IMG/VR virus record: IMGVR_UViG_3300028920_000043
Span: 47,211 to 111,210 of that record
Source of the DNA: a virus
Strand: one strand, 5' to 3'
Length of the DNA: 64,000 nt
Both the position numbers and the translations under genes were made by a program. Position 1 is the stretch's first letter. The number at the start of each line of letters is the position of its first letter. Below the pieces are notes generated by a model. That model ran no database searches, was not told the origin of the DNA, and saw only the letters and a program-made list of their open reading frames with translations. Positions 17,255-63,750 of the stretch are shown here, in pieces.

Positions 17255-17272
17255 GCTTTCACGCATGAAAGC
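17255..17272. repeat. palindromic element, copy 1 (GCTTTCACGCATGAAAGC)
   Basis: Exact 18-bp match to the copies at 45.3 and 63 kb; 27 bp upstream of the FmdB-like gene. Confidence 0.9.
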
Positions 17273-17447
17273 CGCATAAATCGATAGGTTTCTCCGCACA
17301 TACCTAAGAAAACCTATACTATTTCCACATCAACCGAATATATGACGCTCTCAGACCGCGCTGAGCGCTCCGGTATACGCCATATGATAAATCACTCATG
17401 CCCTTACATTTCAGTAAGGAATAGCGTAGGATTTCGCAGTGTCCTGA

Positions 17448-17942
17448 TTATTTGAACTGTATATCCCACACGTCCTTTCCCAGGACATCCCAAGAAATGC
17501 GTTCTTCATCAGGATTCTTTTTATTATATATCTCTGATCCGGTCGAGCAGAGAATAGTGTTCTGTTCCAAACTCATCCAGCCATGCCAGATTGTGGGAGG
17601 CACCACAAGCAGTTTCGGAGTTCTCGCGTGAATGTTGAAAATCTTCACCCGGTCCATATTGATATCCGGATCCCCAGACTTAGCCACCAATTCTGCTCCC
17701 GGGATATTATCTATCAATATGAACTTCGCGGATCCGTTGACAATGCAAAAGTAATCCCAGAGAATCCGGTGACGATGAAACGCCCTGACCGTCATCGATT
17801 GCATATCGCCTACCATATAGACCTGACCAAACTTCTCAAAGAACTCATCAGTCTCGTGGACGATTTCAAACAACCAACCGCGGTCATCCTCCATGACCTT
17901 CAAATCCACAAGCTTAACTCTATCCCACAAATCCATTTCCAT
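17448..17942 (-). CDS. rmlC: dTDP-4-dehydrorhamnose 3,5-epimerase-like cupin
   Basis: DDRGWLFE, FGQVY, VRAFHRH and LLVVPPTIWHGW motifs. Confidence 0.85.
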   Translation of the reverse strand: MEMDLWDRVKLVDLKVMEDDRGWLFEIVHETDEFFEKFGQVYMVGDMQSMTVRAFHRHRILWDYFCIVNGSAKFILIDNIPGAELVAKSGDPDINMDRVKIFNIHARTPKLLVVPPTIWHGWMSLEQNTILCSTGSEIYNKKNPDEERISWDVLGKDVWDIQFK

Positions 17943-17962
17943 TCTCCTTACAAAAAATTATC

Positions 17963-19060
17963 CTAGAACTTCCTTCCTATAAAATAATGCAACCAAGTAT
18001 TATCTCCCACCGCGAACTTTGCATTATCGTACTCAATAAAGTAACGCTTGAGTATCGACAAAGCAAACTTGGGCGGGAAGAAATATTGGATCTCGTGCGG
18101 AATATAATCAACTGCTTCCGCTGCCCAGAAAATCAATCCCAGTACTCCGCCGGGTTTGAGTACTCTATTGTATTCACTTATTGCTGATTCTATTTCCTCC
18201 GGATGTATATGATCCAACGTTGACAGATCTAACACCAAATCGAATTTACCATACCAATCTTTTTTCAAGAACCTGACGTCTCCCACTTCCGCATGGATAT
18301 CTGAGAAGTCCGCCTCATTGAATACATCAATATAATACTTTTCAATATCAATAGTATACTTCTCTCCGGTACATTTCAAACGTGGGAAAACACCTCCGGG
18401 CGGGAATCCCATTATCTCGTTATATACGTCTGTCTTCAATACTGTTGGAAGAGCCTTTGAAATGTTCACGCAGTACTGACTGAACCAAATATACTCCTCC
18501 GTAATTCCTTGGCGCCATTTATGTGTTGCGAATACCTGCTTAGTCAATTCATAAATCTGATAATGACGTTTTCCAATAAACGAATCCTCTACCGTTATTG
18601 ATTCTTCCCTTACTAGAGTGTACCATGGGAGCTCTTTTTCAAGACGAGTAAAAAATCCATAGTGCTCTTGCCATGCTATAATTGACTCCACCGCGATATA
18701 CCTAGGACGGAAGCGCCGTACCAGATCTAAGAACGCAAGGTAACCGTATTCACTTTCGTCTTCGTTCTTTGTGAAGTAGCCACCACCCGCACCGATATAT
18801 AAAAGAATATCGCATTGCGTTACTTCTTTAACAAACTCACCATCTGTCTGGCATTTGAAATCAATATCTTCTCTGCAATCAAGATCTCGCGTATCATTTC
18901 CAATATACGCTTTGAAATCATCATCCAGATATTTATGAAGACGCGCAGAGCCACAGTTCAAATCAATAATGACTTTGTTCTTCGTCTTGTCTTTCAAATA
19001 ATTAGCAATGGGAATGAATCTCTCATCCCATTTCTCAGTATCAAGATATTCCCAAGCCAT
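17963..19060 (-). CDS. SAM-dependent methyltransferase, apparently two MTase-like domains
   Basis: IIDLNCG in the N-terminal half; GDVRFL...FDLVLDLSTLDHI...EYNRVLKPGG in the C-terminal half. Confidence 0.8.
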   Translation of the reverse strand: MAWEYLDTEKWDERFIPIANYLKDKTKNKVIIDLNCGSARLHKYLDDDFKAYIGNDTRDLDCREDIDFKCQTDGEFVKEVTQCDILLYIGAGGGYFTKNEDESEYGYLAFLDLVRRFRPRYIAVESIIAWQEHYGFFTRLEKELPWYTLVREESITVEDSFIGKRHYQIYELTKQVFATHKWRQGITEEYIWFSQYCVNISKALPTVLKTDVYNEIMGFPPGGVFPRLKCTGEKYTIDIEKYYIDVFNEADFSDIHAEVGDVRFLKKDWYGKFDLVLDLSTLDHIHPEEIESAISEYNRVLKPGGVLGLIFWAAEAVDYIPHEIQYFFPPKFALSILKRYFIEYDNAKFAVGDNTWLHYFIGRKF

Positions 19061-19771
19061 TTATCCCACCCTCAATCCTCTCCACTTACTACTATCCAAA
19101 GACGTATCGGGAGGAACATTGAATTGGACATCTTGTATTGACATTTCTTTTACTTCCGGAGATAATCTCTTTGCCAGATCATAAAAGGATTTTCTTGTGG
19201 TACCTATATGAATAAGTCCTAATATATCTTTCCTCACCGCTTTGATAATCTCCTTAGCAATAACATCCACGGTATCGAAGGATGTAAACTTATCAATGAA
19301 TGCTCCCGGATAAGGCCATTTATCTTTAGAACAAAAAGATGTCCTAATAATTAAACCATTCGGATAATTCTCTACTGCTACTTCTCCCAATCTTTTTGTC
19401 ACTGCATAAAAATTAACTGGATGAGGTAAGTCATTTTCTTTATACATCCCTCCTTCTTTTAATCCATCGAAGACATAATCAGTAGATATATAGATCAATG
19501 GAATATCATATGCCGAACAAATCTTGACCAGATTTTCGGTACCGACTTTATTTACTTGAATTGCCGCATCTTTGTTCTGATCACACACCGGAGGAGACGT
19601 AAGAGCAGCACAATGCAAAACCTTATCAGGTTTATGCATTACTATCTCCTTCTTTGCTTTGTCAAAGTTGGTAACATCCAGTATAGAACGTGCTGGATAG
19701 TACCATTCGGAACGCTGAGCTTTCAGCTCTGTTCCCAATAATCCTGAACCACCGGTTACTAAGACTTTCAT
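19061..19771 (-). CDS. rmlD: dTDP-4-dehydrorhamnose reductase-like SDR
   Basis: TGGSGLLG, HCAALT, YISTDYVFDG, P.N.YAVTK and IIRTS motifs. Confidence 0.9.
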   Translation of the reverse strand: MKVLVTGGSGLLGTELKAQRSEWYYPARSILDVTNFDKAKKEIVMHKPDKVLHCAALTSPPVCDQNKDAAIQVNKVGTENLVKICSAYDIPLIYISTDYVFDGLKEGGMYKENDLPHPVNFYAVTKRLGEVAVENYPNGLIIRTSFCSKDKWPYPGAFIDKFTSFDTVDVIAKEIIKAVRKDILGLIHIGTTRKSFYDLAKRLSPEVKEMSIQDVQFNVPPDTSLDSSKWRGLRVG

Positions 19772-19775
19772 GGCA

Positions 19776-20336
19776 TTATCTCACTCTATGTTTTGCTATA
19801 CTGCCTATGAATCCTACTTCATGTACTATATTGAATAAATGCTTTCTGGCAAACTCCAGAGTTATATTCATAGGCCCCAATTCATTTCTTAAGGTTGCAG
19901 GACTCTTGACATAGTGATACTCAAATCTTTCCAGAACGAAAGGTAAAGTACCCGCCGTAAACCATGCGTCTGAAAAGTTACAAGAAATATGCTCAAATAC
20001 AGTTTCCGAGAGTGCATACTTATGACCAGGACAAAGTGCCATATCATTTCGCGCACATGGTACCCAAAGTTCCAAACGAGCTCTATCTCTGCATACTCTC
20101 ACTATCTCATGGAGTATAGGTTGAAGAGGATCGATATGCTCCAGAAAGTGAGAAGAATAAATCTCACCAACACAGTTATCTGGCAGTGGTATTCCCTTTG
20201 TCAAATCACAAACATGATCCACTCCTGGAAGTTGGCAAAAATCGAATCCGAAATAGCCTTCACGTTTTTTGCTACCGCATCCCAAATCTATCTTTTCTAC
20301 ATTATGCTCTTTCGGATCTATAAACCCTGATGGCAT
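19776..20336 (-). CDS. SAM-dependent methyltransferase (type 11-like)
   Basis: IDLGCG.KK..GY.G.D, DLTKGIPLPDN...IYSSHFLEH and EIVRV motifs. Confidence 0.88.
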   Translation of the reverse strand: MPSGFIDPKEHNVEKIDLGCGSKKREGYFGFDFCQLPGVDHVCDLTKGIPLPDNCVGEIYSSHFLEHIDPLQPILHEIVRVCRDRARLELWVPCARNDMALCPGHKYALSETVFEHISCNFSDAWFTAGTLPFVLERFEYHYVKSPATLRNELGPMNITLEFARKHLFNIVHEVGFIGSIAKHRVR

Positions 20337-23044
20337 TCTCTGATCCTCTCTCTTGATTGTTTTCTTGTATTCAATTGCTTCTCCCATCTCTTTCGGAATA
20401 TCAATGCATCAGAATCCGACTGCAGTCCCGAACGACTAAGAGACTCAAAATGAAATCCCTTAGACCAGGGAGTATACATAATCTTATATCCTTTTGATTT
20501 TGCTTTCATGCAGAAGTCAATATCGTTGAACTCAATCGCCATCTTCTCATCGAGTACAACTCCATCTTCCAATACTTTTATATTGATTAATGCACAAGCA
20601 AACGTAACAGCGTCCACCTCCCTTACAAAGTTAACGGCTGAAGAATTACAATCGAATTGGTAGTAATCGTGAATAGCACCTATATCCGATACCAAGCTGA
20701 CTCCTGCATGCTGAATTCTATAACCATTCAGTATCCATGAGAAGTTAAAGAACATAGGCGCTCCTAAAGAATGCTTCAAAGGATATAATAATTGAGATCC
20801 GACTATGCCCACTTTCTCATCTTGTGTTACAATAGATAAGAGTTCATACAACCAACCTGGTCCAACTATCACGTCATCATTAAGCAACACCACATGAGTA
20901 TAGCCCTTGGGGATATTATCTAGCAAGAAATTATTCATCTTCGAATAATTGAACTGCTCCTTCCATTCCCAATTAGTATATCCATTTGCTTCGATGATCT
21001 TATGGTTCGCCATCGTTCCGGGTGAGTCGTCAATATGATGGTGCATAACAAAGACATGATAATCCAATCCGACCGTTTCACGTTGAACCGAATCCAAACA
21101 CGCTTTGAAATGCTGCGTCTTGTCCTTCGTCAAGATAAGTATGGCTACTTTTGGCTTTCCAATCACATCTCGATAGACGCGATAGAATCCGGCAGTCGAT
21201 GTAGGCAAAAGTGATCCCTTGAAGTTGACTCGCTTCATAGAATCACGAACTGCTTTCTTTGCAAACTCATGAGCAAGCAGTTGTGGTTCGGCGCGCCCTG
21301 ACGATGTATTGCTTCCGTGTATTCGCCAGTCAACCAATATCTTTGGAATGTGTCCGATCTCGTTGTCCTTCAGTGCTTCGGTTATCCTCAAGATGAAATC
21401 ATAGTCTTGAGATCCTTCATACTCCGGCCGCGGATAACCTACTTTCTTGATTAACTTTCGGTCAAAGCATTTGAAGTGATTAATAAACATTCCTTGCCAA
21501 AAGAAATCACGATTCCAATCCGGCTTCAATACCTTCTCGAATACCTTACCGGATGCATCTATCTTCTGCTCGTTTGTATAAATCAAACGGTACCGCGGAT
21601 TGTCCTCAGCAAACTTCTCTATGCTCGCGAGTAAATTGGTATGTGCAATGTCATCCGAATCCAGGAATCCAATGAAATCGCCAGTTGCTTCTTCCAATGC
21701 TTTCTTCGTTGCAACAGGTATGCCTGAATTCTTTTTCAGATTGAATAACTTTATCCGTTCATCCTTCTCACTTATATGCTCTAGCAAATCCGAAGTGGAT
21801 TTATTTGAACCATCATTTACTATTATCAACTCCCAATTAGTATAGGTTTGATCCAATACGGAATTGACCATATCACGCAAATACTTTTCCGGAGTGTTGT
21901 AACAAGGAGTGATTATAGAAAACTTAAGATCGCCCGACCTCTTTTCTGGTTCATTGGATATAAAAGCCGTATCCACATTCTCAACTAAATCCACTACCGG
22001 TTTGCATCTATCCGCATAATCAAAGAATGAAAAGCGTTTGGCGAATCTGGCGCTTATTTCCGCTTGTGTAGGATCGTCCGGAGCATTTAATACTTTATTT
22101 ACTTTATCCGCCAATATCTCAAAATCTTTTAAGGGTGCATAAGTTACCAATCCCCCAAATACTTCCTGATACACAGGCAGATCAAATGCAACCACCGGTG
22201 TTCCACAATACAACGCTTCCGCCACTGTCAATCCAAACCCTTCAAAGCACGATGGTGCAGCAAATACCTTTGCGCGCTTCAATGCTTTGAACTTATCTGC
22301 ATCATTGCTACCATCAAAGTATCTGACTTCATATCCTTTTGACTGCGCCGCCGCCTCTATTGCTTCGCGCTCTCCATTGGCCATCTGAGTCGTAAAGATA
22401 TCAAGATACGTCTGATCCTCTACACGTTTAAGGGATCTCACCAATTTCTGGAAGCCTTTGTGCGCCGCACTCCTTCCAACCATGAGAATGCTATTATCGC
22501 GTTTCTTGGGTTTTGGTGCCTTGTCTGCGGCTAAAGAATTGATTGCTGGAGGAATGATAAGCTGAGTAGCTTTAGATTCTGAATACCACTCATTAAAATA
22601 CTTCTTACCTTCCTCTGTGGAATGAATAATTACTGAGGCATCACTGAGAGCATTTCTCGTACCCTTCCAGAAATCATCTACCGTGTCATATCCTTCTCCA
22701 CGATACTCACGCATCCAATTAGGAGTATCAAAGAATAAGGCTACTAATGGTATTTGCTTGGAACGGGCGAAGTATGAAGCGTGCTCAAGGCCTTTGTATG
22801 GAGTTCCAATTACAAAGTCAAACTCATGGAAAAGAAATTCCTTTCCCCAATTTTCTCCTTCTATCCATGAGATTCTTCTTACCGCTTCATACCCAAAGAA
22901 GTCGGAATGAAAGGATGGCATTAAGTTAGTTACATAGAAAACATCAATTCCACTGTTTGCCAATGACAATGCAAACAGTAAAGCATGATAACGCCCTCCG
23001 GTATACTTGCCCCGGAAGTTCTCGGAAAATAAGATCGCTTTCAT
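20318..23044 (-). CDS. tri-domain glycosyltransferase (GT4 + GT2 + GT2)
   Basis: GT4: HKG...PS.FEGFGL..AEAL..GTPVVAFD. First GT2: SIITPCYNT..WELIIVNDGS..FLDSDD..GSQDYD. Second GT2: AILILTKD..FNYS..LLNDD..AVTFAC..NDIDFC. Confidence 0.93.
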   Translation of the reverse strand: MKAILFSENFRGKYTGGRYHALLFALSLANSGIDVFYVTNLMPSFHSDFFGYEAVRRISWIEGENWGKEFLFHEFDFVIGTPYKGLEHASYFARSKQIPLVALFFDTPNWMREYRGEGYDTVDDFWKGTRNALSDASVIIHSTEEGKKYFNEWYSESKATQLIIPPAINSLAADKAPKPKKRDNSILMVGRSAAHKGFQKLVRSLKRVEDQTYLDIFTTQMANGEREAIEAAAQSKGYEVRYFDGSNDADKFKALKRAKVFAAPSCFEGFGLTVAEALYCGTPVVAFDLPVYQEVFGGLVTYAPLKDFEILADKVNKVLNAPDDPTQAEISARFAKRFSFFDYADRCKPVVDLVENVDTAFISNEPEKRSGDLKFSIITPCYNTPEKYLRDMVNSVLDQTYTNWELIIVNDGSNKSTSDLLEHISEKDERIKLFNLKKNSGIPVATKKALEEATGDFIGFLDSDDIAHTNLLASIEKFAEDNPRYRLIYTNEQKIDASGKVFEKVLKPDWNRDFFWQGMFINHFKCFDRKLIKKVGYPRPEYEGSQDYDFILRITEALKDNEIGHIPKILVDWRIHGSNTSSGRAEPQLLAHEFAKKAVRDSMKRVNFKGSLLPTSTAGFYRVYRDVIGKPKVAILILTKDKTQHFKACLDSVQRETVGLDYHVFVMHHHIDDSPGTMANHKIIEANGYTNWEWKEQFNYSKMNNFLLDNIPKGYTHVVLLNDDVIVGPGWLYELLSIVTQDEKVGIVGSQLLYPLKHSLGAPMFFNFSWILNGYRIQHAGVSLVSDIGAIHDYYQFDCNSSAVNFVREVDAVTFACALINIKVLEDGVVLDEKMAIEFNDIDFCMKAKSKGYKIMYTPWSKGFHFESLSRSGLQSDSDALIFRKRWEKQLNTRKQSRERIRECHQGL

Positions 23045-25712: not shown

Positions 25713-27197
25713 TCATTTCGTAATATTGCCCGAGATTCTTAAATCTATCTCTCGGTTCTTTATTAAATCCAGCAGACGTTTGCGAATATCCAACTGCTCA
25801 GATCCTGATAGTCTCCAATATTCATAGCCTTCCGGAATTCGTTTTTTGATCTCACTGGGTAGTGCGGAAACGCCAAGAGGCGTAGTATACTCTTTATCTA
25901 TTACTGACTGTGTCAGTATTGAAGGCATTTGGTCGATGGGTTTCACTGCTAACCATAATGGTCCGCGTATATGATTGCAACTCGGAAGTGCCTGTTCCTT
26001 CCGCAGAAATGAGAATAACTTGCTTTCCAAAACATCCAAGGTCAGCTCTGTTATCTCTTGTTTCTGGAACCACATCTCGAATTGAATAGTATTACTTCCC
26101 AACCGTCTGTCTACATATCCTGAAATCGTTCCTAACAGATCATATAAGGAAGAAACACCTGTCTCACTGTAAAGAGTTTCTTTATCAAATGTACTTGCTA
26201 AGCCCTCCTCTCTTTCTCGTTGTTCTAACATGGCATCAAATGCTTGATAGCCTATTATAGGTTTACACAATTTATAAAAAGATTTCAGTGCTTCAGTACC
26301 AACAGTTATCCTTCTCAGGATAATGCGAAAGTTCAAAGCACTGCCCTTTAAGAAATACTCATGAGAAAGGAATTGTTGAATACCAAAGTCTATTGATCCA
26401 GAATCCACTACTGAAATGATTCCGGCAGTCTTATCTTCAGCATCAATAAATCCCTCATGCTTCATGGTGTCGATAGATTCTGGGATTCCTTTTTGAGCAA
26501 AGACCGATGTATTTATGACTCCGGATTGACTTGTTTCCGAAATCCATTTCCCACTCTCCCAATCTATCCTCCAATTATCAGAATCCAAATCGTTCTGTTT
26601 TGCACGTTCAAGCGTATCGGTAGGCTTTTCAAAGGAAAGACGTTTCTGATCCTCCAATTTCCAGCATAAGCATTTCTTGCTGTCCTTGGATGTGATTTTA
26701 AGATATGATTTAACTGAAGCATCTTTATAGATATGATGAACGCAAAAAAGAAAGTCATTCGATTCCGATGGATATTGAGAATACAAATCTCCTGCTTTTG
26801 CAAAATCTAAATCCCCCGGATTCCGCAGATCGATCTCAAAACCTTTTTCCGATACATACGAATAATTCAGAAGCTTTCGATATAGAATCATATTGCTAAT
26901 TATTCGATCTGATGCCGCTATGATATATCTGCCTGCTTTATCTATCTCGAGAGCTCCTGTTACCACGCGCTTTACAGCATCAAGAGATTTCGCTTTTATA
27001 ATGAGTGAGGGCCCCTTCGCTGTTTGTTTTAGAATCAAAAACTCTTGACTATCGTAAGGCTTTGAATCCCCACGCCCATTGGACATTGCAGTAAGTTGAG
27101 TAATGGCAGTGTCTTCATTGGATCCGAGACTTTTTATCGTACCATCCGGTTGCAATGTCAAATAATTATTACTTGCAAGGGCAACCTCTACACCCAT
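25713..27197 (-). CDS. hypothetical head-module protein, possibly with a degenerate LigD phosphoesterase-like domain
   Basis: 494-aa ORF; weak pattern FCVHH....SV..YLKI...W.L and VVDSG....G....HEYFLKG..L..RI.LRR. Confidence 0.5.
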   Translation of the reverse strand: MGVEVALASNNYLTLQPDGTIKSLGSNEDTAITQLTAMSNGRGDSKPYDSQEFLILKQTAKGPSLIIKAKSLDAVKRVVTGALEIDKAGRYIIAASDRIISNMILYRKLLNYSYVSEKGFEIDLRNPGDLDFAKAGDLYSQYPSESNDFLFCVHHIYKDASVKSYLKITSKDSKKCLCWKLEDQKRLSFEKPTDTLERAKQNDLDSDNWRIDWESGKWISETSQSGVINTSVFAQKGIPESIDTMKHEGFIDAEDKTAGIISVVDSGSIDFGIQQFLSHEYFLKGSALNFRIILRRITVGTEALKSFYKLCKPIIGYQAFDAMLEQREREEGLASTFDKETLYSETGVSSLYDLLGTISGYVDRRLGSNTIQFEMWFQKQEITELTLDVLESKLFSFLRKEQALPSCNHIRGPLWLAVKPIDQMPSILTQSVIDKEYTTPLGVSALPSEIKKRIPEGYEYWRLSGSEQLDIRKRLLDLIKNREIDLRISGNITK

Positions 27198-27214
27198 GAT
27201 TATTCCTCAAATTA

Positions 27215-27319
27215 TTCAAATTGAGCTAGTTCATTAGCTTTCATGCGTGAAAGCTTTTGAACTGGCTCTGTCCGAAACTTTCAAATTGGCCTAGTTCATT
27301 AGCTTTCATGCGTGAAAGC
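27215..27319. repeat. palindromic element pair, copies 2-3 (cores 27237-27254 and 27302-27319), 65-bp period
   Basis: Direct repeat ttcaaattg..ctagttcattaGCTTTCATGCGTGAAAGC, twice. Confidence 0.92.
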
Positions 27320-27381
27320 CAGTAATCTGGGAATCTTTGTGTTTATATCTTAATCGAACAGTCCCAGGTTATTCTTAAATT

Positions 27382-27552
27382 TTATCCTTCAGTCTCTTCG
27401 CCAAATTCCTTAGGACGTTTTTTTCTACGTTTTAAGAGCCAAAGCTGAGACTCATCAGACGAATCCAATAAACCTACAACTCCTGGTTCCCGTTCTTTCT
27501 CATACTTCAACTGATCTTGATACATCTCATCAAACTTTTTCTTTGCCATCAT
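27382..27552 (-). CDS. 56-aa protein downstream of the MuF-ART gene (candidate immunity/partner protein; absent from the ORF track)
   Basis: MMAKKKFDEMYQDQLKYEKEREPGVVGLLDSSDESQLWLLKRRKKRPKEFGEETEG; starts 14 nt after the MuF stop, preceded by AGGA. Confidence 0.5.
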   Translation of the reverse strand: MMAKKKFDEMYQDQLKYEKEREPGVVGLLDSSDESQLWLLKRRKKRPKEFGEETEG

Positions 27553-27566
27553 AGATTTCCTATAGA

Positions 27567-29876
27567 TTAAGGCTGCGTCAAAGATAATACCTTCAATGCT
27601 TTCTTACCCAAAAGAACGAACTCCTGCTCACCACTGTATCCAATACCCATCGGAGCTAATGCTCCCACTTCAGAGGCCGGAACCTCAACTTTCAAAACCA
27701 TTCCATGAGCATCCTCAGCAAAACTCTTTGCTACACTCCTTGTCTGTGAAAAGCTGGATCCGGGAGATACTGCTAACTTCTTTCCTTCCAGCTTAGAAAG
27801 CGCTTGTACGACACCTCCAGGAGTCTTACCATAGGGAGATTGCTCAATAAGAGTAACCAATTCGTTATTCCCCAATCCCCTATAGAGTGTTATGGACTTC
27901 TTTCCACCCACTTTCAACAATTCTTTTGTGCCAGCTTCAGCGTAGTTTATAATGGAATTCAAGGTTGTCTCTACTTCTTCTTTAGTGAGATTATATTTAC
28001 GCATACTATCCTCAATAAATCTCTCATAGAAACCCTCAAATTTCTGTAGCTGTCCTTTATCCTTATCAATAAATCCAGTCATCTTTGAATGAAATACAGG
28101 CCTCTTTGCTTTTAATGACATTGCTTTTCTCAGCATTAATTGTTGAGGCTCTTGGAAGCGCGTCCAATTAACAATAATCTCATGAGAAAATCCAGACATG
28201 CTTCTTGCTTTGTTAGGATCAATTCCTGCTTTAACGTAATAATCAAATAACTCCTTACTGGTACTCTTTGCTGCTTCTCTATAATCCACAGGTGTCAGGG
28301 CTCTAGAAACAAAACTTTTGCTTACTCCTTGCTTTGCTATGGTATCAGCAATAGTCTGTTCCAAAGTTCTCTTCGGTTTCGGTTTTGCCTTTGGTTTCGG
28401 CTTGGGTTTCGGTTTTGGTTTTGGAACCACGTTTGCTTTAGGAATAACAACAGTGCTTCCTTGTCCCTTCTGGTACCCTGGTGGTATTATATTCTTATCA
28501 GCAAACTGATATGGAACCCAAGTACAACGGCAACGAGTATGTAAAGGTAATTGACCATAAGCTTTATTAATATCATAAATAGTATTTGCTTTTGGTTTGC
28601 AATACTTACAAGTCCGCTCATCCCAATGAATCAGCCACCGGACTTTAGTGACCCCCATTTTCTTATAACGATAAAGCTTCCCTTCATTACTGGCACGTAA
28701 GACTTCTGTACGAGCAACACGTCCCGCCCAGTCCTTGTTGGTTATCGTATATGGTGCGGAGCCATCCTTCGGAACCACGCGCAATGGAGCATTATATACT
28801 TCTTGAATTCTTTTCTTTAATTGTGGTACCGTCTCCCCCAGACGAATACCATCAATTAATTGAACCTTCAACCGTGAGTTTATATCTGCTGCTACTTTAG
28901 TTGATATAGCCGCGGATCTAGCACGAATAAAACGCAGTTCATTAGATGCTGGTGCTTTCCAAACAACCTTCAAACGTCCTTCGGCAATTGCCTTCTTATC
29001 CCCCTTAACAAATGCCTTGGCGGAATTCGCTGTAATGACCTTCTCCATCTCTTTCGGATTGATAGTGGAAATAACTTCAATATCCGAAAGCTTCGCCTTT
29101 TTCAACTCTGCTGGTAGCTTGAAATCCTTATATAAGTATCCGTCATCCTCTCTCCATGTGTAAGATACAAAGAACTCCTTGCCTTTTATAGAATCGATTA
29201 TCTTATCCAAATCATCCTTTAATGATTTTCTGAATAGCCGCTCCAATGTAGCAATCGATTCTCTTTCCCACTTACGAAGTACGCGCTGAATCTGATCGGA
29301 TGTCTTTTCTTCTAAATCTTCAGTTTCTGCAAAGTAAAGATCATAATCCTTGGGCTTCTCTCCTTCCAATACCAATTCGGTATCGTCTTGCTTCTTTATT
29401 GATTTTTTCTTATCACTTATCAACATCAATTTAGCAAGATTCGGAAGATCGGTATACTTTATCTCTTTATCTGCGATCTGAATCCGTGAGGATGATTTCA
29501 ATCCAACGGTATGCAAACCCATAAGTGCTTTTATTGTTTTCCGAAACTCAGCACTTTCCGTGAGAGAAAGCATACTATCATATTCCGGAAAAGAATTCAG
29601 AACCTGAAGAACTCCTGAGTTACTGAGTTTACATTTTATCCACGTCTGTTCTGGATTGAGTTTCCAGTTTCGCATTAATGAAAAAATACTATCGAATTTA
29701 CTGGAGCCCAAAACTATAGAAAAGTTATCAGGATTAATAACAATCAAGTCCGCCGGACCCGTATCGTATTCCCAATCCTCTACAGACTTGGAAAACTCGG
29801 ATGAACGATAGCACAGATCCTGTCCTATCCCTACCGTACCATCGTTCCAAGGATTATTGAGTAAAGTATATTTCAT
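27567..29876 (-). CDS. MuF/SPP1 gp7 minor head protein with a C-terminal R-S-E ADP-ribosyltransferase domain
   Basis: gp7: ARTEVLRASNEG, W....DERTCKYC, HTRCRC. A (PK)n linker follows. ART: TLYRGL, SSFSQTRSVAKSFA, EQEFVL. Confidence 0.88.
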   Translation of the reverse strand: MKYTLLNNPWNDGTVGIGQDLCYRSSEFSKSVEDWEYDTGPADLIVINPDNFSIVLGSSKFDSIFSLMRNWKLNPEQTWIKCKLSNSGVLQVLNSFPEYDSMLSLTESAEFRKTIKALMGLHTVGLKSSSRIQIADKEIKYTDLPNLAKLMLISDKKKSIKKQDDTELVLEGEKPKDYDLYFAETEDLEEKTSDQIQRVLRKWERESIATLERLFRKSLKDDLDKIIDSIKGKEFFVSYTWREDDGYLYKDFKLPAELKKAKLSDIEVISTINPKEMEKVITANSAKAFVKGDKKAIAEGRLKVVWKAPASNELRFIRARSAAISTKVAADINSRLKVQLIDGIRLGETVPQLKKRIQEVYNAPLRVVPKDGSAPYTITNKDWAGRVARTEVLRASNEGKLYRYKKMGVTKVRWLIHWDERTCKYCKPKANTIYDINKAYGQLPLHTRCRCTWVPYQFADKNIIPPGYQKGQGSTVVIPKANVVPKPKPKPKPKPKAKPKPKRTLEQTIADTIAKQGVSKSFVSRALTPVDYREAAKSTSKELFDYYVKAGIDPNKARSMSGFSHEIIVNWTRFQEPQQLMLRKAMSLKAKRPVFHSKMTGFIDKDKGQLQKFEGFYERFIEDSMRKYNLTKEEVETTLNSIINYAEAGTKELLKVGGKKSITLYRGLGNNELVTLIEQSPYGKTPGGVVQALSKLEGKKLAVSPGSSFSQTRSVAKSFAEDAHGMVLKVEVPASEVGALAPMGIGYSGEQEFVLLGKKALKVLSLTQP

Positions 29877-30678: not shown

Positions 30679-30855
30679 TTAATTGTCATTGAATATTCTT
30701 GATCTTAACTCAACAAGAGTAGTGATTATAGAATCATCTGAAACTTCTGTAGTAATGACAGATTTCAATGGAACCTCCAGAGTTATTTCGCTTTCCAAGT
30801 CTACTTCAAAAGTTAAACGGCTTTTTAATGACACTATCTCTTTGCATACGGTCAT
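30679..30855 (-). CDS. 58-aa repeat protein (absent from the ORF track)
   Basis: TAATG coupling to the upstream stop; MTVCKEIVSLKSRLTFEVDLESEITLEVPLKSVITTEVSDDSIITTLVELRSRIFNDN. Confidence 0.6.
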   Translation of the reverse strand: MTVCKEIVSLKSRLTFEVDLESEITLEVPLKSVITTEVSDDSIITTLVELRSRIFNDN

Positions 30856-32486
30856 TAGAATATCCTTGATTTCAATACAATCACTTCTCTACATACAACT
30901 CCACCTTCATAATCATAAAGGATATTTCCATCCTTCTGTACTTCTGGTGCTCCTTCATAATCATAAAGGATATTGGCGTCCTTTATTGTTGGCTCTATCG
31001 GTATTAAAATTGTTATCTGCCGATGCTGAGTATGCCCATCGACAGTAAGCCAAATATCGTATACTCCTGACTTATAAAAGATAACTGTGAGTTCATTCTC
31101 ATTTCCCGTCTTGACTGTCTGACCCAACCAATCTTTAACTACCCACGAATAAGTCGAGCCTTCATCATCTGTCTGGAACGTCACTTGTTCCGCGGTAATC
31201 GTGAACTCGTCCCACGTAAACATCAACCGAACTATTTTTTCCAGCTCAGTTGTTTGTGGAGCGAATCCATCGTTCCAATGAACAAGTTGCTTTATGTTGT
31301 AATACTCATGATCTTCACTGAATACATACTGCCATGTATCCGTCTTGCTCAACCCGGATTCAACTACCACATTATCAATCTTATAATCTACTGACGTTAC
31401 TCGATTATTCGGATCAACTATGTCCGGTATAAAAGTAACGAGATCGCCAGCGAACGGATCAACAGGTAACCAATCGAATCCAGGAGTAACTGACCATGTT
31501 TGCTGTGTAACTGTCCTCTCTTTATAATCTGTCTGAAAAGCAAAACCATCCCACCACTTGACTTCAATCCGCACCGTATGTGGTCCTGGTGTTACAAACG
31601 TCCACTTAAACAGTGCTGACCAGCTCGTATTCCAATCTACTTTTACATCACCGTCCACCAACCACCGCACTTCTGAATCCACCGGGTTCTCTGGATCGGT
31701 GTCGGTCGATGTATTAGTAAACGTGACTTCCTGTCCCGGATTCGGATTATAGTCGTCTGCAACAAAATCCGCATCCGCAGGATTCCAATATACTGCTATC
31801 CCCCACTCCTCATAATCATCCGCATTGGACTTGTCAAATGCATATGCTCGGATAGTATAATTTCCACCACCAAGCCAATACGAAGAATACCCAACGAAAT
31901 TAGTCTTCCCCATATATTCTGTATATTCGGCAGGATGTCCTACAAAATCTAAATAGTACCGAACTTTCAGAATATCATTTATGGCATTTATTGTTTGCCC
32001 ATAACGTACCAACCATTGATATATCGTTATTCCATGAGCAACCCAACTATGCACGTCATTTAATGACGCGGCGCCAATGGTTATGTTCTCCTCAAAGAAA
32101 GGAGTAAGGTCAGGATCGACAAAGTTAGCATTCGGCGGGAAGTTAACCTTGATCTGAAAATCTTGAACATAAACATCCGCCGCAGTGAGAACAATCTCAA
32201 TGGCACCCCATTCAGTTAATGAAAGACTATTTCTATCCGAATCTCCTTTCCAAGCAACTATAAGTATCTTGTCACCAGCCGCCGCGCTTCCACTCTGGGT
32301 TAGGAAATCGGCATCACCCAGGTTGAAGGAATAGTAACCGCCGGAAGCGGTCTGGCGGACATTGTTCCACTTGGACGAAGAAGACGTTGGGTTGACCTTG
32401 TAGAAGAAAGCCTGATAATATATCCCGTCTTCGACAACATCCGCATTGTTATATGTAAAGCCAGCAAAGCTGATATTGAGCGCCAC
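30855..32486 (-). CDS. PKD/Ig-like domain structural protein
   Basis: P.A.F....P..GQEVTFTNTS.D..., W.F.TPG.HTV.I and YSW....F.KSGVYDI.LTV motifs. Confidence 0.7.
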   Translation of the reverse strand: MALNISFAGFTYNNADVVEDGIYYQAFFYKVNPTSSSSKWNNVRQTASGGYYSFNLGDADFLTQSGSAAAGDKILIVAWKGDSDRNSLSLTEWGAIEIVLTAADVYVQDFQIKVNFPPNANFVDPDLTPFFEENITIGAASLNDVHSWVAHGITIYQWLVRYGQTINAINDILKVRYYLDFVGHPAEYTEYMGKTNFVGYSSYWLGGGNYTIRAYAFDKSNADDYEEWGIAVYWNPADADFVADDYNPNPGQEVTFTNTSTDTDPENPVDSEVRWLVDGDVKVDWNTSWSALFKWTFVTPGPHTVRIEVKWWDGFAFQTDYKERTVTQQTWSVTPGFDWLPVDPFAGDLVTFIPDIVDPNNRVTSVDYKIDNVVVESGLSKTDTWQYVFSEDHEYYNIKQLVHWNDGFAPQTTELEKIVRLMFTWDEFTITAEQVTFQTDDEGSTYSWVVKDWLGQTVKTGNENELTVIFYKSGVYDIWLTVDGHTQHRQITILIPIEPTIKDANILYDYEGAPEVQKDGNILYDYEGGVVCREVIVLKSRIF

Positions 32487-32490
32487 ACTC

Positions 32491-32838
32491 TTAACCCCAA
32501 GGCAGAATCATTACTGAACCGTATACGTTCTTGATCCAGTAAGCAGTGTATTCATAATAAATCCCGTCGATGTAAATCAATTCAAAATTATTCGGACTGG
32601 CCGGCGGCGTCACACCCGGTATATAAGTCTTGAACGCGCCTTCCCCGCCGAAATACGTGTTGGCAACTTCAACGCAACCCGGGGCATATGTCGCTTCCAA
32701 ATAGTCGATGATGCTTTTTATTCTCTGGCCGGTCACCGGCGTCGAAATAAGCTGCCAGTCAACGTCTATCTCGACCACACCCGCCGGCGCGCCGCCGCTT
32801 TTCGGCATTGCCCCCATTACTGGCGCTATTGTTTGCAT
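32491..32838 (-). CDS. hypothetical protein
   Basis: Tightly packed, co-oriented ORF. Confidence 0.6.
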   Translation of the reverse strand: MQTIAPVMGAMPKSGGAPAGVVEIDVDWQLISTPVTGQRIKSIIDYLEATYAPGCVEVANTYFGGEGAFKTYIPGVTPPASPNNFELIYIDGIYYEYTAYWIKNVYGSVMILPWG

Positions 32839-32847
32839 AATTCACCA

Positions 32848-36705: not shown

Positions 36706-37134
36706 TTATCTTAATCTCTTCCAGATATTTCTTACATAAGTATAAACACTCAAAACGCGAGAGAGTACCAATGGAATATCACTTGCATGAGCTCCCGTCT
36801 GATTTATCACTCCGCCGAATGATCCGCCAATCTGATGATCTACGGTAGGCTCATCCCAAATCTCGTTCGGCATATCTTCTATCTTCAAAGCAGTTTCAGT
36901 AGAGCCGTAAACATAGCGCTCTCCACCCATTAAACTCGCCCCACCATCCGCTGTAAAAACATAAGTAATACTAGCATCCAAAGCAGTGGCATTATAAAAA
37001 TAATGTCCACCATCTATTTCGGTCATGGCAACGGCAGTCAAAACTTGGGTCCCATCTGTTTGCCAAGCGTCAAGCGTAGGAGATAATCCTGTCTTTGGTG
37101 ATCCGTTCTCTGTAAAGAATGCCGTTATGTGCAT
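36706..37134 (-). CDS. putative structural protein
   Basis: FTENGSPKTGLSPT...MTEIDGG.Y.Y pattern; IWDEP..H..GGSFG motif shared with the adjacent gene. Confidence 0.6.
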   Translation of the reverse strand: MHITAFFTENGSPKTGLSPTLDAWQTDGTQVLTAVAMTEIDGGHYFYNATALDASITYVFTADGGASLMGGERYVYGSTETALKIEDMPNEIWDEPTVDHQIGGSFGGVINQTGAHASDIPLVLSRVLSVYTYVRNIWKRLR

Positions 37135-43740: not shown

Positions 43741-45288
43741 TTAAGCTACATCATTGAATAAACTGGAAAGTAAGTATTCCATCTCTCGTGGATCCACATC
43801 AAAATCCATGAAAAGTTTTTCACCATCCATACTAATAATATCCTTCATCTTATCCTCAGCCGTCACCGATGGCTTGACAGCTGGTTGAGATTGAACGGGC
43901 TTAATCGGATTTCCACCTTGCGTCTGCTGTCCGGGAACGAAAGGAGCATCTCCCCACGGTACAGGTCCAAGTCCCTTCAATGCTCGAACTTCATTAATGG
44001 TATTGACCGCGTTCTGCACATAAGTCTTATCTATATTTGCTTGCGTTTCTACATCAGCGCGGTCAATATCATCAAAATCCGCTACCACATCATAAATACC
44101 AAGACCATCCTGAACGATCTCTTTGGTATATGTATAGGATTCCAAGGCTAAAATAGGCTTGATTGCGTTTGCTTTGAATACTTCAATCTGCTGAACTGAA
44201 TTGAGACGCCCAGTTCCCACATCTCTTATTCCAAGAACAATCGGTTGCATGGAATAACATGACATAACTTTCTGAAGCAACCATCTTGCATACTCCATGA
44301 ACTCCATGTCTTTATTCTTGCCCGTTAGATCGAGAAATTCTGGTTTAGTTCCCACAAATGCCATTTTATGAGAGCGCCCTTTGAATTGAGCCCTCCACCA
44401 ATCGGCAAAACGTTTCAGTGCCGGCTTCTTCATTCCTCCCAAACCAACAATGCCGGACGGCATTGCATTGTTCTGAAAGAACTCGAGATTGTGGCGATCA
44501 GCAAACAGATCGGCAGCGATTGTTTGCTTCAATGATTCCAGGGGTGACAATCCATAAACTGATCCGGGTTGCGGATATTGGATCATGTAGATCAGTTCAT
44601 CCTTTTGAAACTCTGCGGCAGGTTCTCTGGGATTTTCAGGAAGGTATTGTAGATATGCCCGATTCGGAATAAGATTGCCATGCTTGTTTATATTTTTTCG
44701 TATGTATCTTGATTCTTGATTATAGATCTCTGCCAACTTTCCGGTTGTATCTTTTACTTTCTCCATGCACCCAGAATCCGATACCAATAAATCCAGTATC
44801 GTCTTCTTTCTGATATCCATGAAGCTTTCTTTTTCGAGATTAGGATCTTCAAAGAAGTCCATAACCGCATCCATATTTCTCTTGGTCTTATCCGGAATGC
44901 CTGTTGCTTCAGGACGCTTGGGACGGACCCTTACATGGACTGCTGTTGCCGTCTTTACTATGAGATCAATTATTGCACGAGACCAGGAATGGCTCCGATA
45001 GACTCCCCACATGAGATCAAGGGAGACCAAAGGTTCTCTAGGTACCCCATTTCTTCCCCCGTACCCCATTGCAGTCCGTAACTGCTGATTAATCGTTCCG
45101 CGCCGATTGCTCGAATCTCCTCGGGGCTTACCAAAATCGGGTCCGGTATCATTGTCGTCCGCCTTTATCATCTCTGCCTTTCTTTCGATATGAACAGCAG
45201 GCACCGGCAAGACTTTTGTTTCCTCAGCTTCTGTTTCTGATCCAGGAGATGATCCCAGACGCTTGAAGAATGTAATAATTTTACTCAT
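43741..45288 (-). CDS. portal protein (HK97-type)
   Basis: DLLVSDSG, YGLSPLESL, FFQNNAMPSG, DMEF.E and TINEVR...GLGPVPWGD motifs. Confidence 0.95.
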   Translation of the reverse strand: MSKIITFFKRLGSSPGSETEAEETKVLPVPAVHIERKAEMIKADDNDTGPDFGKPRGDSSNRRGTINQQLRTAMGYGGRNGVPREPLVSLDLMWGVYRSHSWSRAIIDLIVKTATAVHVRVRPKRPEATGIPDKTKRNMDAVMDFFEDPNLEKESFMDIRKKTILDLLVSDSGCMEKVKDTTGKLAEIYNQESRYIRKNINKHGNLIPNRAYLQYLPENPREPAAEFQKDELIYMIQYPQPGSVYGLSPLESLKQTIAADLFADRHNLEFFQNNAMPSGIVGLGGMKKPALKRFADWWRAQFKGRSHKMAFVGTKPEFLDLTGKNKDMEFMEYARWLLQKVMSCYSMQPIVLGIRDVGTGRLNSVQQIEVFKANAIKPILALESYTYTKEIVQDGLGIYDVVADFDDIDRADVETQANIDKTYVQNAVNTINEVRALKGLGPVPWGDAPFVPGQQTQGGNPIKPVQSQPAVKPSVTAEDKMKDIISMDGEKLFMDFDVDPREMEYLLSSLFNDVA

Positions 45289-45304
45289 TGAAGATCCCCA
45301 AATA

Positions 45305-45417
45305 TTCAAGCAGAGCTAGTTCAAAAGCTTTCACGCATGAAAGCTAACCATCCAGTCCAATTTGAAACTTTCAAGCAGAGCTAGTTCAAAAGCTTTCACG
45401 CATGAAAGCTAATGAAC
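45305..45417. repeat. palindromic element pair, copies 4-5 (cores 45327-45344 and 45392-45409), 65-bp period
   Basis: ttcaagcagagctagttcaaaaGCTTTCACGCATGAAAGCtaa, twice; inverted copy of the 27.2-kb pair. Confidence 0.92.
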
Positions 45418-48535: not shown

Positions 48536-48536
48536 T

Positions 48537-49103
48537 CTAATCCTCCTCATACCTAAATGGTTTCAACTCGTCAATAATCTTCAGACGTATCTTGTAATTA
48601 GAATATTTCTTTCCTATTAACTTTATCTTCTTTAGACGCCTAACCTCCTCTGTTATGTTTGACTGCCCTTTGAATACACGCCGAGCAGATGAGCGTGCCA
48701 ATCTCCTTTCCTTTACCGGCCAGTCAGGTGTTACCGGCCATTCATTATGCTTTTTAACTAACGCATAAATCTCTGTCCGTTTCCAATCCTTATACTGTGC
48801 CAGTACGTCAAGAAAATTGATAATCCTGTCAAACTCCTGTTGAGACTCCGGAATAAGCATGTTGTATCCGGTACTAGACGAACTACGAATTGGAGGACGA
48901 GTCGAGAGTTTCTCACTACCATTATCCTCTCCCGAAAGTCCTTTCTTTCTCCAACGATTATAGCACCGGGTACACATACCGCGGGCTTGCATATGGCATA
49001 TAATTCCTTGATATCTTTTCCCGAACTTTCTTCGGCACCTTATGCAGGTAGTACGCTTCCGCTTGTTTATTTTTCGCTTCCGTGTACCGCCCATGTATGT
49101 CAC
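48537..49103 (-). CDS. basic hypothetical protein with a CxxC...CxxC motif
   Basis: CIRC...H..ARGMCTRCY. Confidence 0.55.
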   Translation of the reverse strand: MTYMGGTRKRKINKRKRTTCIRCRRKFGKRYQGIICHMQARGMCTRCYNRWRKKGLSGEDNGSEKLSTRPPIRSSSSTGYNMLIPESQQEFDRIINFLDVLAQYKDWKRTEIYALVKKHNEWPVTPDWPVKERRLARSSARRVFKGQSNITEEVRRLKKIKLIGKKYSNYKIRLKIIDELKPFRYEED

Positions 49104-58374: not shown

Positions 58375-58378
58375 TTCA

Positions 58379-60080: not shown

Positions 60081-60086
60081 TCCACG

Positions 60087-60985: not shown

Positions 60986-60988
60986 TTC

Positions 60989-61898: not shown

Positions 61899-61910
61899 GG
61901 CTTGGACTCC

Positions 61911-62078
61911 TCATGCATTATTACTGAATTTATCAATATGCTTTCGTAATCTATCTCTAAATTTTAACAGCATATTCCATTCCTTATCCTTTGTTGAAAA
62001 ATAACAACTGGCTACCTGTTCACATTTACAAGCAACCTCCCTTAACTTACTCAACTGTTTTGTTGTTCTTATCTTCAT
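61911..62078 (-). CDS. hypothetical protein (55 aa; absent from the ORF track)
   Basis: MKIRTTKQLSKLREVACKCEQ...; same GGAGTCCAAGCC leader as the downstream gene. Confidence 0.55.
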   Translation of the reverse strand: MKIRTTKQLSKLREVACKCEQVASCYFSTKDKEWNMLLKFRDRLRKHIDKFSNNA

Positions 62079-62091
62079 GGCTTGGACTCCC

Positions 62092-62274
62092 TTACAATTC
62101 CTTCACGTCAATAATGTGAAGATCATACGCTATGCGTTCTTTGTATTCCGTTTTAATTCTAAAGCTACGACCGCAACATTTGGACACTCTTGTATGAATA
62201 CCGTTGTACCTCACCCGTTTGTATTTTTGACATATCGGACATTGCCACGCATATCTATGAAAGTTTATCTTCAT
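62092..62274 (-). CDS. zinc-ribbon hypothetical protein
   Basis: WQCPIC...KCCG; start placed at the repeated leader. Confidence 0.55.
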   Translation of the reverse strand: MKINFHRYAWQCPICQKYKRVRYNGIHTRVSKCCGRSFRIKTEYKERIAYDLHIIDVKEL

Positions 62275-62290
62275 GGCTTTGGATTCCTTA

Positions 62291-62527
62291 TCATTTTGTG
62301 TACTCCTTATCTCCTTCAATAGCCGCTTTCGCTTCCTTATCCTTAAACCCGCAGAACATACAATCATCATTATGTCCCACGGTCATTACATTCTCCAACG
62401 TATCCAACAGCTTCAGGTGCCGTGTTTCCAATTTCCCATACTCCGCCTTCAATTGCTCCTCCGCATCCTTCAACCGCGTTATCTCCTCAACTGCCCGCGC
62501 GCTCATACTCGAATCAATCATAACCAT
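62291..62527 (-). CDS. hypothetical protein
   Basis: GGAGG RBS; coiled coil followed by H..DC.FC. Confidence 0.55.
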   Translation of the reverse strand: MVMIDSSMSARAVEEITRLKDAEEQLKAEYGKLETRHLKLLDTLENVMTVGHNDDCMFCGFKDKEAKAAIEGDKEYTK

Positions 62528-62529
62528 AT

Positions 62530-63750
62530 CTCAATCCTCCGTACCGCGTTTCCATCAGTTCAAGACGCACAGTCCCAGTCAGTCATATGTTATACCCGGT
62601 ATTCTCAAATCTTGTACGAGAATCTCCAGCCATAGACCCGTATGTAAAAAACCGGTACTACTTGACTTTTTCCCGAGGGGGTACCCGGTGCCGTTCGATA
62701 TGCGTATATACCCGTCCATTCCCGTTGTCATACGTTCATTCCTTTCCTTTGTTTGTTCTTATTCGCCTTTACAATGCTTACTGTGCTTTGAAGGTCTCAA
62801 GTATACTGAAGCCCTGTCCGTTTATTCGCGTATATCCATTACTGTGCTTCAATGTACTTAAAGGGCTTTGAAGCCTTGTAGTCCTATCGAAGGTTTATTA
62901 TTCTATGACGACTGATTCTCCATAATACTTCGTTGTACTTGTTGCCTTCGCAAGTCCTCAAGTCGTCTGCAGTCCTGTTGCTGTTTATTCGGTATTCGTG
63001 CATAATTCTAAAAAAGGAGCCAGTTCATTAGCTTTCACGCATGAAAGCTTTTAAGCTGATGCTGTTTGAATACTCCTTATGGATTATATCGATAATCACG
63101 CCTTCATTGCCTTGTTGCCTTCACAAGTCCCATAGTCGTATCAAGGCGTATTCACGCATAATAGTTCAGAGTGGCCCAGTTCATTAGCTTTCACGCATGA
63201 AAGCTTCTGTATCTGCATATGACTCAAGTCGTGTGCAGTATTATGAAGCATACCCGGTATTCCTTGCGCTTGTGTTGTCATGCAATCGTATAGCGTGCAA
63301 TACACCTTTATAGTACTCGGTATACTTCAAAGGTCCGTAGTCGTTTGAAGTCATATGCGATAATAACGCAACAAACGTCCATATGACTTAAGTCGTATTC
63401 AGCCCTTTAAGCCCTGTTTATTCGTTATGACATTATTGAGTGATTGAAAGAAGGTTCTCCGGTACTCCATAGAGCTTTAAGCAGGCACTGTTCCAACGTA
63501 CCTCAAACCTCACTTTCTATACTGTTTTACCGGGCTGTGCATACCGGGTATATACCGTGTAAACAAATAGTAAATGTTTTATTGTGTTATCGTATGTATC
63601 TACAGCTATTCCTGTAAGTATCATGTATTATGCTATTGTATCGTTTCCTTATGCGTTATTCGTTTGAATGCCTTCCATATCCCAAAAAAAATAAGAATCC
63701 TCCTGTGGATACCCTTGTGCTTTTAGTTTTTTAGCCATATCTAACGACAC
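62530..63750. promoter_or_regulatory. long non-coding region with degenerate repeats (candidate control, origin or packaging region)
   Basis: No minus-strand ORF of 60 aa or more; repeated AGTCGT and GTTTATTCG motifs and two palindrome copies. Confidence 0.5.
63017..63204. repeat. palindromic element, copies 6-7 (cores 63031-63048 and 63187-63204), 156-bp period
   Basis: ccagttcattaGCTTTCACGCATGAAAGCtt, twice. Confidence 0.9.

Follow-up and report, generated by a model that had tools for sequence, protein, structure and literature searches.

Dispersed parS-like palindromes between the genes of a large phage as candidate operator sites of an orphan ParB-family protein

The DNA analyzed here is a 64,000-nucleotide stretch of a virus (the window), corresponding to bases 47211-111210 of the 111,210-bp IMG/VR record IMGVR_UViG_3300028920_000043, a contig with a CheckV completeness of ~80%. 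An 18-bp palindrome, GCTTTCAYGCRTGAAAGC, is present in the window in seven exact copies, starting at positions 17255, 27237, 27302, 45327, 45392, 63031 and 63187 (coordinates are those of the window unless the contig is named). These sites, with perfect arms and with CGCA or TGCG as their center, had been described in an original prediction made from the window alone, and exact matching reproduced them; on the plus strand the center reads CGCA in five copies and TGCG in two. In dinucleotide-preserving shuffles of the window (n = 100) no match to GCTTTCAYGCRTGAAAGC was obtained, and the chance expectation is 0. When the 4-bp center was left free and up to two arm mismatches were allowed, just three further matches were found in the window, all of them unrelated.

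All seven sites are located between minus-strand open reading frames (ORFs), as had been claimed. The single copy at 17255..17272 (center CGCA) lies 26 nt upstream of the minus-strand start at 17228, which belongs to a 91-aa zinc-ribbon protein with a weak FmdB-like match (16953..17228, minus strand) that heads an epimerase/glycosyltransferase block. A tandem pair precedes the head block: its gene-proximal core (27237..27254, center TGCG on the plus strand) lies 39 nt upstream of the start at 27197 of a gene for a 494-aa protein with no family match (25713..27197, minus strand), which is followed by a head-protease-like gene, and its distal core (27302..27319) is 65 bp away from the proximal one. 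A second pair with the same 65-bp spacing (45327..45344, proximal, and 45392..45409, distal) precedes the portal gene, annotated at 43741..45309 on the minus strand, with the proximal core 38 nt upstream of the ATG at 45288 that is the likely true portal start. The last two cores (63031..63048 and 63187..63204, 156 bp apart) lie in the early region near the contig end, in adjacent units of an array of non-coding repeats (period ~160 bp), and this repeat-rich stretch is farther from the next gene. The array, which spans 62700-63450, consists of diverged ~160-bp units, two of which contain the palindrome, and both of these also contain TGAACT and TATGC 17 bp apart; it may be a tandem early-promoter or origin region. 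A further non-coding element of ~200 nt is found in two diverged, colinear copies, at 17273-17447 and at 45957-46180 of the contig (L007:5957-6180), each just upstream of a palindrome in the sense direction. The two copies have the blocks CTGCGAAATCCTA, TGAGTGATTTRTCAT, CGGTCTGAG and ATTTATGCG in common and no match in Rfam, and the element may be a promoter/leader or a small RNA.

Counting over the full contig yielded 12 exact copies and three with one mismatch, spread across 99 kb. No other family of palindromes with the 7-4-7 design has more than one member on the contig, and in Markov shuffles of the contig (n = 20) the largest such family had one member. Coding capacity is nearly all on the minus strand, and all 15 cores are placed in gaps between minus-strand ORFs, where they form 10 clusters. 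Five of the clusters are tandem pairs, with spacings of 41, 41, 65, 65 and 156 bp. In all clusters but one, the core nearest the gene ends 14-54 nt ahead of a minus-strand start codon, with a Shine-Dalgarno sequence (SD) in between, and this spacing persists in gaps of 180-600 bp. The blocks that follow the clusters are the early small genes, the portal gene, the head block, the epimerase/glycosyltransferase block, a 742-aa protein beside tail-fiber-like genes, a 5'-3' exonuclease plus 7-deazaguanine operon, DNA polymerase A, a MoxR/VWA pair, a block ending in RuvC and RecA, and an operon encoding a sigma-like and a ParB-family protein. The late-gene regulator considered in the original prediction is therefore too narrow, since early, replication, recombination, head and tail blocks are preceded alike. 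No sigma-70 promoter was found at the sites in a promoter scan; a terminator scan called none of the seven window sites, and the core of this phage is not followed by a run of T, so the element is not an intrinsic terminator.

Several of these blocks have features of their own. Glycosyltransferases, a nucleotide-sugar epimerase and a sulfotransferase-like gene are interspersed among structural genes at 12694-23044 and 47291-48550. Outside the window, at ~30770-36750 of the contig (L006), a 7-deazaguanine DNA-modification cluster is encoded, comprising a DpdA-like tRNA-guanine transglycosylase, QueC, a class-V aminotransferase-like protein, FolE fused to a phosphoribosyltransferase-like N-terminus, QueE and QueD, and followed by the 5'-3' exonuclease gene. 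The family A DNA polymerase (contig 26866-29295, L006:6866-9295, minus strand) carries a fused N-terminal domain of the uracil-DNA-glycosylase superfamily, and this fusion is kept in the related phage described below (54% identity over 786 aa).

The site can be written as 8-2-8, GCTTTCAC-GC-ATGAAAGC, that is, two half-sites GCTTTCAY around a central GC. It is symmetric save for its center, which is CGCA or TGCG and never CGCG or TGCA in any of the 15 copies. On the sense strand TGCG occurs ten times and CGCA five times, so that the core has no fixed orientation relative to transcription. The word ACGCGT is rare on the contig (3 observed versus 15.9 expected); this depletion could explain the always asymmetric centers (ACGCAT, never ACGCGT), and may itself reflect restriction-site avoidance. 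Most cores are flanked by an outer word, GAGCYAGTTCA / TGAACTRGCTC, on one side, mostly the gene side. The original prediction had joined core and outer words into a nested palindrome of 46 bp, a description that holds in part: an outer word is present on one side at six of the seven window sites (for instance GGCCTAGTTCA at 27302 and GAGCTAGTTCA at 45327; the core at 17255 has none), but the core at 27237 is the sole site at which it is clearly present on both sides (27226-27236 and 27258-27268). Half-site-like words, TGAACTAG and TGAAAG, occur beside the cores and are restricted to intergenic DNA; exact TGAACTAG words are intergenic in 10 of 10 cases on the contig. A short everted palindrome that re-uses the TGAAAG half-site, TTGAAAGTTTC, lies between the cores of both 65-bp pairs (27274..27284 and 45364..45374), and also adjoins the single core at contig position 36802. 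In the three variant copies it is the outermost arm position that is altered, without a compensating change. Because of these uncompensated variants and the intergenic half-site-like words, the conserved feature is the sequence, including the additional words, and not the hairpin as such.

The original prediction had found no cognate protein for the sites. This holds for the window but not for the contig, on which a ParB-family protein of 401 aa is encoded ~34 kb outside the window (contig 12052-13257, minus strand). The sigma-like/ParB operon is immediately preceded by two cores and immediately followed by one. The protein is of the Spo0J/Noc type, with a GERR cytidine triphosphate (CTP) motif and a helix-turn-helix (HTH): HTH_ParB is matched at 4e-11, while ParB_N alone remains sub-threshold (20.5 bits). 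Motifs of the CTP-binding type, GxxRxxA and (E)NxxR, are represented by GERRATA from residue 194 and NDAR at residue 231, and the G, RR, N and R of these motifs are invariant in an alignment of the eight-member subfamily. A profile search against the PDB gave 1.7e-21 to 4UMK, among Spo0J/ParB/Noc structures, with the N-terminal domain (NTD) aligned, and only 1e-4 to KorB. In an AlphaFold2 model a disordered, Lys/Glu-rich N-terminus (residues 1-137) is followed by the NTD and HTH (140-321, predicted local distance difference test (pLDDT) score 80-93), a linker and a small C-terminal domain (CTD), and the top Foldseek matches of the model are Noc, ParB, Spo0J and KorB. The CTD (345-398, a beta-hairpin and a long helix, pLDDT 57-67) is conserved and subfamily-specific, and was unmatched to known ParB CTDs. 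Among the ~100 ORFs of the contig that were scanned, ParB is the sole recognizable sequence-specific HTH protein; besides replication enzymes, the only recognizable nucleic-acid-recognition proteins are ParB and a small protein resembling sigma-70 region 2.

Relatives of this phage are scarce. With 21 kb as query, Megablast found nothing among GenBank phages, tblastn of portal and ParB retrieved very distant phages only, and locus searches with ParB or portal as single proteins found no relatives. An exhaustive HMMER search yielded just two close ParB homologs (47 and 40% identity) and a few distant ones with the same CTD. When an alignment of three ParB sequences was used as query, IMG/VR returned only contig 3300013103_000005 (hereafter G003) and a 29%-identical ParB, and the metagenome collection returned only a 2.2-kb contig; no repeated palindrome was present at the loci of two weaker ParB matches (L016 and L022) or at a further locus (L023). 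G003 (76,116 bp, 33% GC) carries a 46-47% identical ParB and shares 14 genes in the same order with the present phage, among them the clamp loader (63% identity), PolA (54%), RecA (65%), a 160-aa protein (49%), a 437/321-aa protein (54%), the sigma-like protein and ParB. It was retrieved again in an alignment search with the 437-aa protein.

The neighbors of ParB are thus conserved in both phages. Directly upstream of ParB, a sigma-like protein of ~140 aa is encoded at 13301-13738 of the contig (L005:13301-13738, minus strand) and at 71533-71955 of G003 (L020:11533-11955, plus strand). Both proteins give sub-threshold Sigma70_r2 matches of 15-20 bits at the same profile positions, their protein-atlas neighbors are 'sigma-70 family' clusters, and they are 29% identical to each other (BLASTP 2e-10); judged by these matches, the protein resembles sigma factors that consist of region 2 only, such as gp55 of T4. 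Two further proteins of this neighborhood have no family match. One is the helical 160-aa protein (contig 11512-12015, L005; G003 homolog L020:12936-13409, 49% identical) and the other a Cys-rich protein of 437 aa (contig 10144-11457, L005), the G003 homolog of which has 321 aa (L020:13444-14409, 54% identical over 213 aa). The C-terminus of the Cys-rich protein contains Lys-rich and acidic low-complexity tracts like those of the ParB N-terminus.

The word of the present phage has no copy in G003, but a different palindrome of identical 8-2-8 geometry, AGTTTAAC-GC-RTTAAACT, is present there in 28 copies. Neither genome contains the other's word, canonical parS or the Noc-binding sequence (NBS). 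About 26 of the 28 G003 copies are located in gaps just before a ribosome-binding site (RBS), and ~22 of them end 10-25 nt ahead of the start codon; the palindrome is usually 2-8 nt from the SD, the TAA stop codon of the upstream gene often lies within its left arm, and one copy abuts an ATG. All 17 ACGCGT words of G003 are inside palindromes. The pre-RBS position in G003 may be partly a trivial result of its compact genome; in the present phage the gaps are larger and the sites are still near the gene start. Only one or two homologous junctions carry sites in both phages. It thus appears from this comparison that individual sites come and go while the copies of the word in a genome change together, and concerted change combined with site turnover argues for a sequence-specific factor acting in trans. 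The earlier proposal that the sites are bound by one phage protein is in line with this pattern.

The same data bear on the possibility that the element acts in RNA, as a hairpin before the RBS that is bound or cut by a sequence-specific protein and controls processing, stability or translation of cistrons in long one-strand transcripts. The genes are on one strand, the element is found between a stop codon and the next RBS, and in G003 it is close to the SD, with the stop codon often in its arm. The hairpins fold stably; the fully nested copy at 27237 folds at -23.7 kcal/mol (z = -8). In G003 the asymmetric centers are CGCA on the sense strand in 9 of 9 cases, and over both phages four of the six arm variants would still pair as G-U in the sense RNA, which together hint at a strand-specific, RNA-level constraint. 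In the present phage, on the other hand, neither the loop nor the inner flanks keep to one orientation (10 versus 5), and among the 43 copies of the two genomes there is no compensatory pair change. The G003 stem consists of seven mostly A-U pairs (-7 to -10 kcal/mol). RNase III would need a stem of ~20 bp, for which most copies of the present phage are too short; one copy alone forms it, and a site for this enzyme was rejected for that reason. No Rfam family was matched in the window, no RNA-binding or Cas6-like protein was recognized, and any non-coding insert in a compact genome is forced just before an RBS. A role of the hairpin in RNA is therefore considered rather unlikely.

Copies that are identical within the genome, at positions shared at only one or two homologous junctions, would also be expected of selfish or host-derived repeats, such as repetitive extragenic palindromic (REP) sequences, miniature inverted-repeat transposable elements or recombination hotspots, which would have no function for the phage. 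In IMG/VR the exact word GCTTTCAYGCRTGAAAGC gave three unrelated single matches, and in the two of these that could be searched neither another copy nor a related ParB was present. Across 596 Gb of prokaryote genomes the 18-mer usually occurs once. The exception is Thermohalobaculum, a GC-rich alphaproteobacterium, in which it is found on many contigs and is apparently a genus repeat (loci L029, L034, L043 and others); it is judged unrelated to this phage of 42% GC. In no genome of similar GC content and in no other IMG/VR phage is the word repeated. Neither phage contig contains a Y1/RAYT (HUH) transposase (PF01797) or a tyrosine integrase, the placement at gene starts is strict, and the relative has a different word with the same geometry. 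An origin as functionless repeats is accordingly regarded as highly improbable, and two suggestions of the original prediction can be set aside with it: REP-like hairpins, as there is no Y1/RAYT gene and no plausible host has the word as a repeat, and recombinase sites, as no recombinase was found. A host REP origin had been tried as a candidate and was rejected on the absence of PF01797 and the singleton nature of the 18-mer.

The resemblance to parS that had been pointed out is borne out at the level of the half-site, as GCTTTCAC agrees with the parS half-site TGTTTCAC at six of eight positions, a level of agreement that the half-site of the G003 word reaches as well. For a random 8-mer a match of at least 6/8 is calculated at ~0.4% per alignment register. 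The complete element is not the 16-bp parS palindrome TGTTNCACGTGNAACA, since with 18 bp (8-2-8) its center is 2 bp longer. In Caulobacter ParB, R173 reads the G at base 1 of parS, while in Noc Q173 reads an A, and Arg was invariant at 173 among the parS-specific ParB variants that were selected (Jalal et al., PMC7383237). By profile alignment, the equivalent of R173 is E269 in the ParB of the present phage and K193 in that of G003, and base 1 of the site is C in the present phage and G in G003. Glu-C and Lys-G are expected protein-DNA pairings. Across the ParB subfamily the column is variable (E, K, P and A). The agreement between residue and base 1 fits recognition of the sites by ParB and is, on the aligned sequences, the most specific evidence that ties this candidate binder to them.

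A centromere or partition function, which the original prediction had suggested by reference to phage-plasmid N15, does not agree with the gene content or with the layout. ParA (AAA_31 or CbiA-type) was detected on neither phage contig, the present one being ~80% complete, while all control genomes gave matches; there is no integrase on either contig, and no lysogeny, plasmid or repressor gene was detected on the contig. The sites are placed at gene starts over 99 kb and are not clustered near a parAB locus or an origin, and a partition centromere was rejected on these grounds.

Taken together, the palindromes are probably, by a modest preference on our part, operator or loading sites of an orphan phage ParB, in the manner of KorB and its OB operators or of stoperators, and not a centromere. 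A dimer of ParB would recognize both arms through its helix-turn-helix and would afterwards, if the analogy with ParB, Noc and KorB holds, form a closed clamp dependent on CTP. Bound ParB could act as a roadblock or silencer and in this way control transcription genome-wide across the 10 gene blocks, and through the sites at its own operon it might regulate its own expression. Binding to the sites, use of CTP and the effect on transcription are all three predicted from motifs, placement and analogy. Transcription control is preferred over partition because the sites are located before the RBS of the first gene of a block and at the operon of ParB itself, and because no ParA or lysogeny genes were found.

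Several points weigh against this interpretation. To our knowledge, tolerance of a center that is 2 bp longer is unreported for any studied ParB. The covariation of residue and base is based on two phages only, and with a contig that is ~80% complete, ParA could lie in the missing part. Most ORFs of the contig have no family match, which makes an unrecognized DNA-binding protein conceivable, and the gene resembling sigma-70 region 2 adjoins ParB in both phages and has diverged as much as ParB. The one-sided centers of G003 and the G-U-compatible arm variants, described above, belong to the same side of the balance.

Some of these points lead to another phage protein as the binder, either an unannotated dimeric regulator or a factor that works with the sigma-like protein, in which case the palindromes would be classical operators or activator sites at phage promoters. 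The many ORFs without family and the sigma-like gene beside ParB in both phages, at 29% identity, are consistent with this. Phage-specific promoters are also likely, given that no sigma-70-type promoter is found by the sites, and the outer motif, TGAACTAG plus TTGAA, is directional, being mostly on the gene side of the core. Such a protein would leave the parS-like half-sites and the match of residue and base 1 unexplained; moreover, sigma factors do not need two-fold symmetric sites, and no other HTH protein was detected. We therefore regard a different binder as doubtful.

The palindrome could also be the promoter itself, of a phage RNA polymerase or sigma factor, with one exact 18-bp word per transcription unit as in T7-like phages and the start at its downstream edge. 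A word that is exact within a genome and differs between relatives would suit a promoter, the distance of 10-55 nt to the start codons accommodates a short leader that includes an SD, no host-type promoter is nearby, and a sigma-like gene is present. Yet its two-fold symmetry and its occurrence in both orientations leave the word without a direction, and both the tandem copies 41-65 bp apart and the G003 copy that abuts an ATG fit poorly. A T7-type RNA polymerase (PF00940) was not found on the ~80% complete contig in a search that had no positive control. That the palindromes are promoters is considered quite improbable.

In T4 the sliding clamp gp45 activates the region-2-like sigma factor gp55 in the late system. 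A variant of the ParB interpretation with activation in place of silencing can be formulated along these lines: ParB would load as a clamp at the palindromes before the gene blocks, slide, and as a positive, mobile transcription factor activate the adjacent sigma-like protein, which has region 2 only, at phage promoters. We consider this variant unlikely; were it true, the module of sigma-like, ParB and 160-aa proteins that follows the palindromes in both phages would amount to a self-contained switch for phage transcription.

Clamps of the ParB family that use CTP are segregation proteins of chromosomes and plasmids, and have recently also been recognized as long-range silencers (KorB) and anti-silencers (VirB). 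The network of KorB and its 12 OB operators on the IncP-1 plasmid RK2 (PMC11790492) resembles the arrangement described here, in that a ParB-family CTPase has about a dozen dispersed, non-coding palindromes near gene starts, including its own operon, and controls the transcription of many operons, as is proposed here. The layout is found again in the 15 sites and 10 intergenic clusters of the present phage, sites at the sigma-like/ParB operon included, and the domain order of KorB (disordered N-terminus, NTD, HTH DNA-binding domain, linker and CTD) is that predicted for the phage ParB. The two systems differ in that KorB also partitions its plasmid together with IncC (ParA) and has KorA or TrbA to lock it at promoters, whereas in this phage no ParA was found and no KorA homolog was recognized, the conserved sigma-like and 160-aa neighbors giving no KorA-like match. 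The phage protein is also not a KorB ortholog, being closer to chromosomal ParB/Noc (1e-21) than to KorB (1e-4), and the parS-derived site has 18 bp in contrast to the 13 bp of OB and is carried by a large tailed phage instead of a plasmid. With the chromosomal ParB-parS and Noc-NBS systems (PMC7383237) the phage shares the CTP motif, the HTH, a half-site identical at six of eight positions and a residue at position 173 that tracks base 1. It differs from ParB-parS by two additional central base pairs, by copies that are found genome-wide at gene starts and not clustered at the origin, by the lack of a ParA, and by a protein with a long disordered Lys/Glu-rich N-terminus and a subfamily-specific CTD.

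Among phages, Cluster O mycobacteriophages such as Corndog contain 34 copies of an invariant 17-bp palindrome, TGTTCGG-N3-CCGAACA, and encode a ParB-like protein, gp90; the authors proposed an unidentified dimeric regulator as binder and doubted a transcriptional role (PMC4351075). That palindrome, too, is phage-wide, often in short intergenic gaps or near the 5' ends of genes, without orientation preference and absent from the host genome, but about one third of its sites are inside genes, while all sites of the present phage are intergenic and parS-derived and are accompanied by a relative in which both site and ParB differ in a matching way. The stoperators of Cluster A mycobacteriophages (PMC9283540), many repressor sites in short gaps genome-wide at which the bound protein blocks elongation, would by analogy come nearest in function to an element located between a stop codon and the following RBS. 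A stoperator is an asymmetric site of 13 bp with fixed orientation for the monomeric immunity repressor of a temperate phage, in contrast to the symmetric sites of the present phage, which occur in both orientations (10 versus 5) on a contig on which no repressor, integrase or lysogeny genes were found. In the N15 prophage-plasmid, SopB and IR1-4 (PMC7205306) are an example of dispersed inverted-repeat sites for a ParB-type protein on a phage genome; N15 has SopA (ParA), the lifestyle of a plasmid prophage and four sites for partition, none of which was found here. In the literature that was searched, no paper links a phage ParB CTPase to genome-wide sites.

The present system thus appears, as far as its sequences indicate, to follow the logic of ParB and KorB, and to differ by its location on a tailed phage, the parS-derived 8-2-8 site, the strict placement at gene starts and the conserved sigma-like neighbor. 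If the proposed role of ParB is true, a large, apparently lytic phage in which no ParA was found would extend the control logic of ParB clamps to viruses. The two phages would offer a natural pair of ParB and site specificities, Glu/C versus Lys/G at base 1 in an 8-2-8 site, which bears on the evolution of specificity and of half-site spacing, and the same logic may explain the unassigned genome-wide palindromes of the Cluster O mycobacteriophages.

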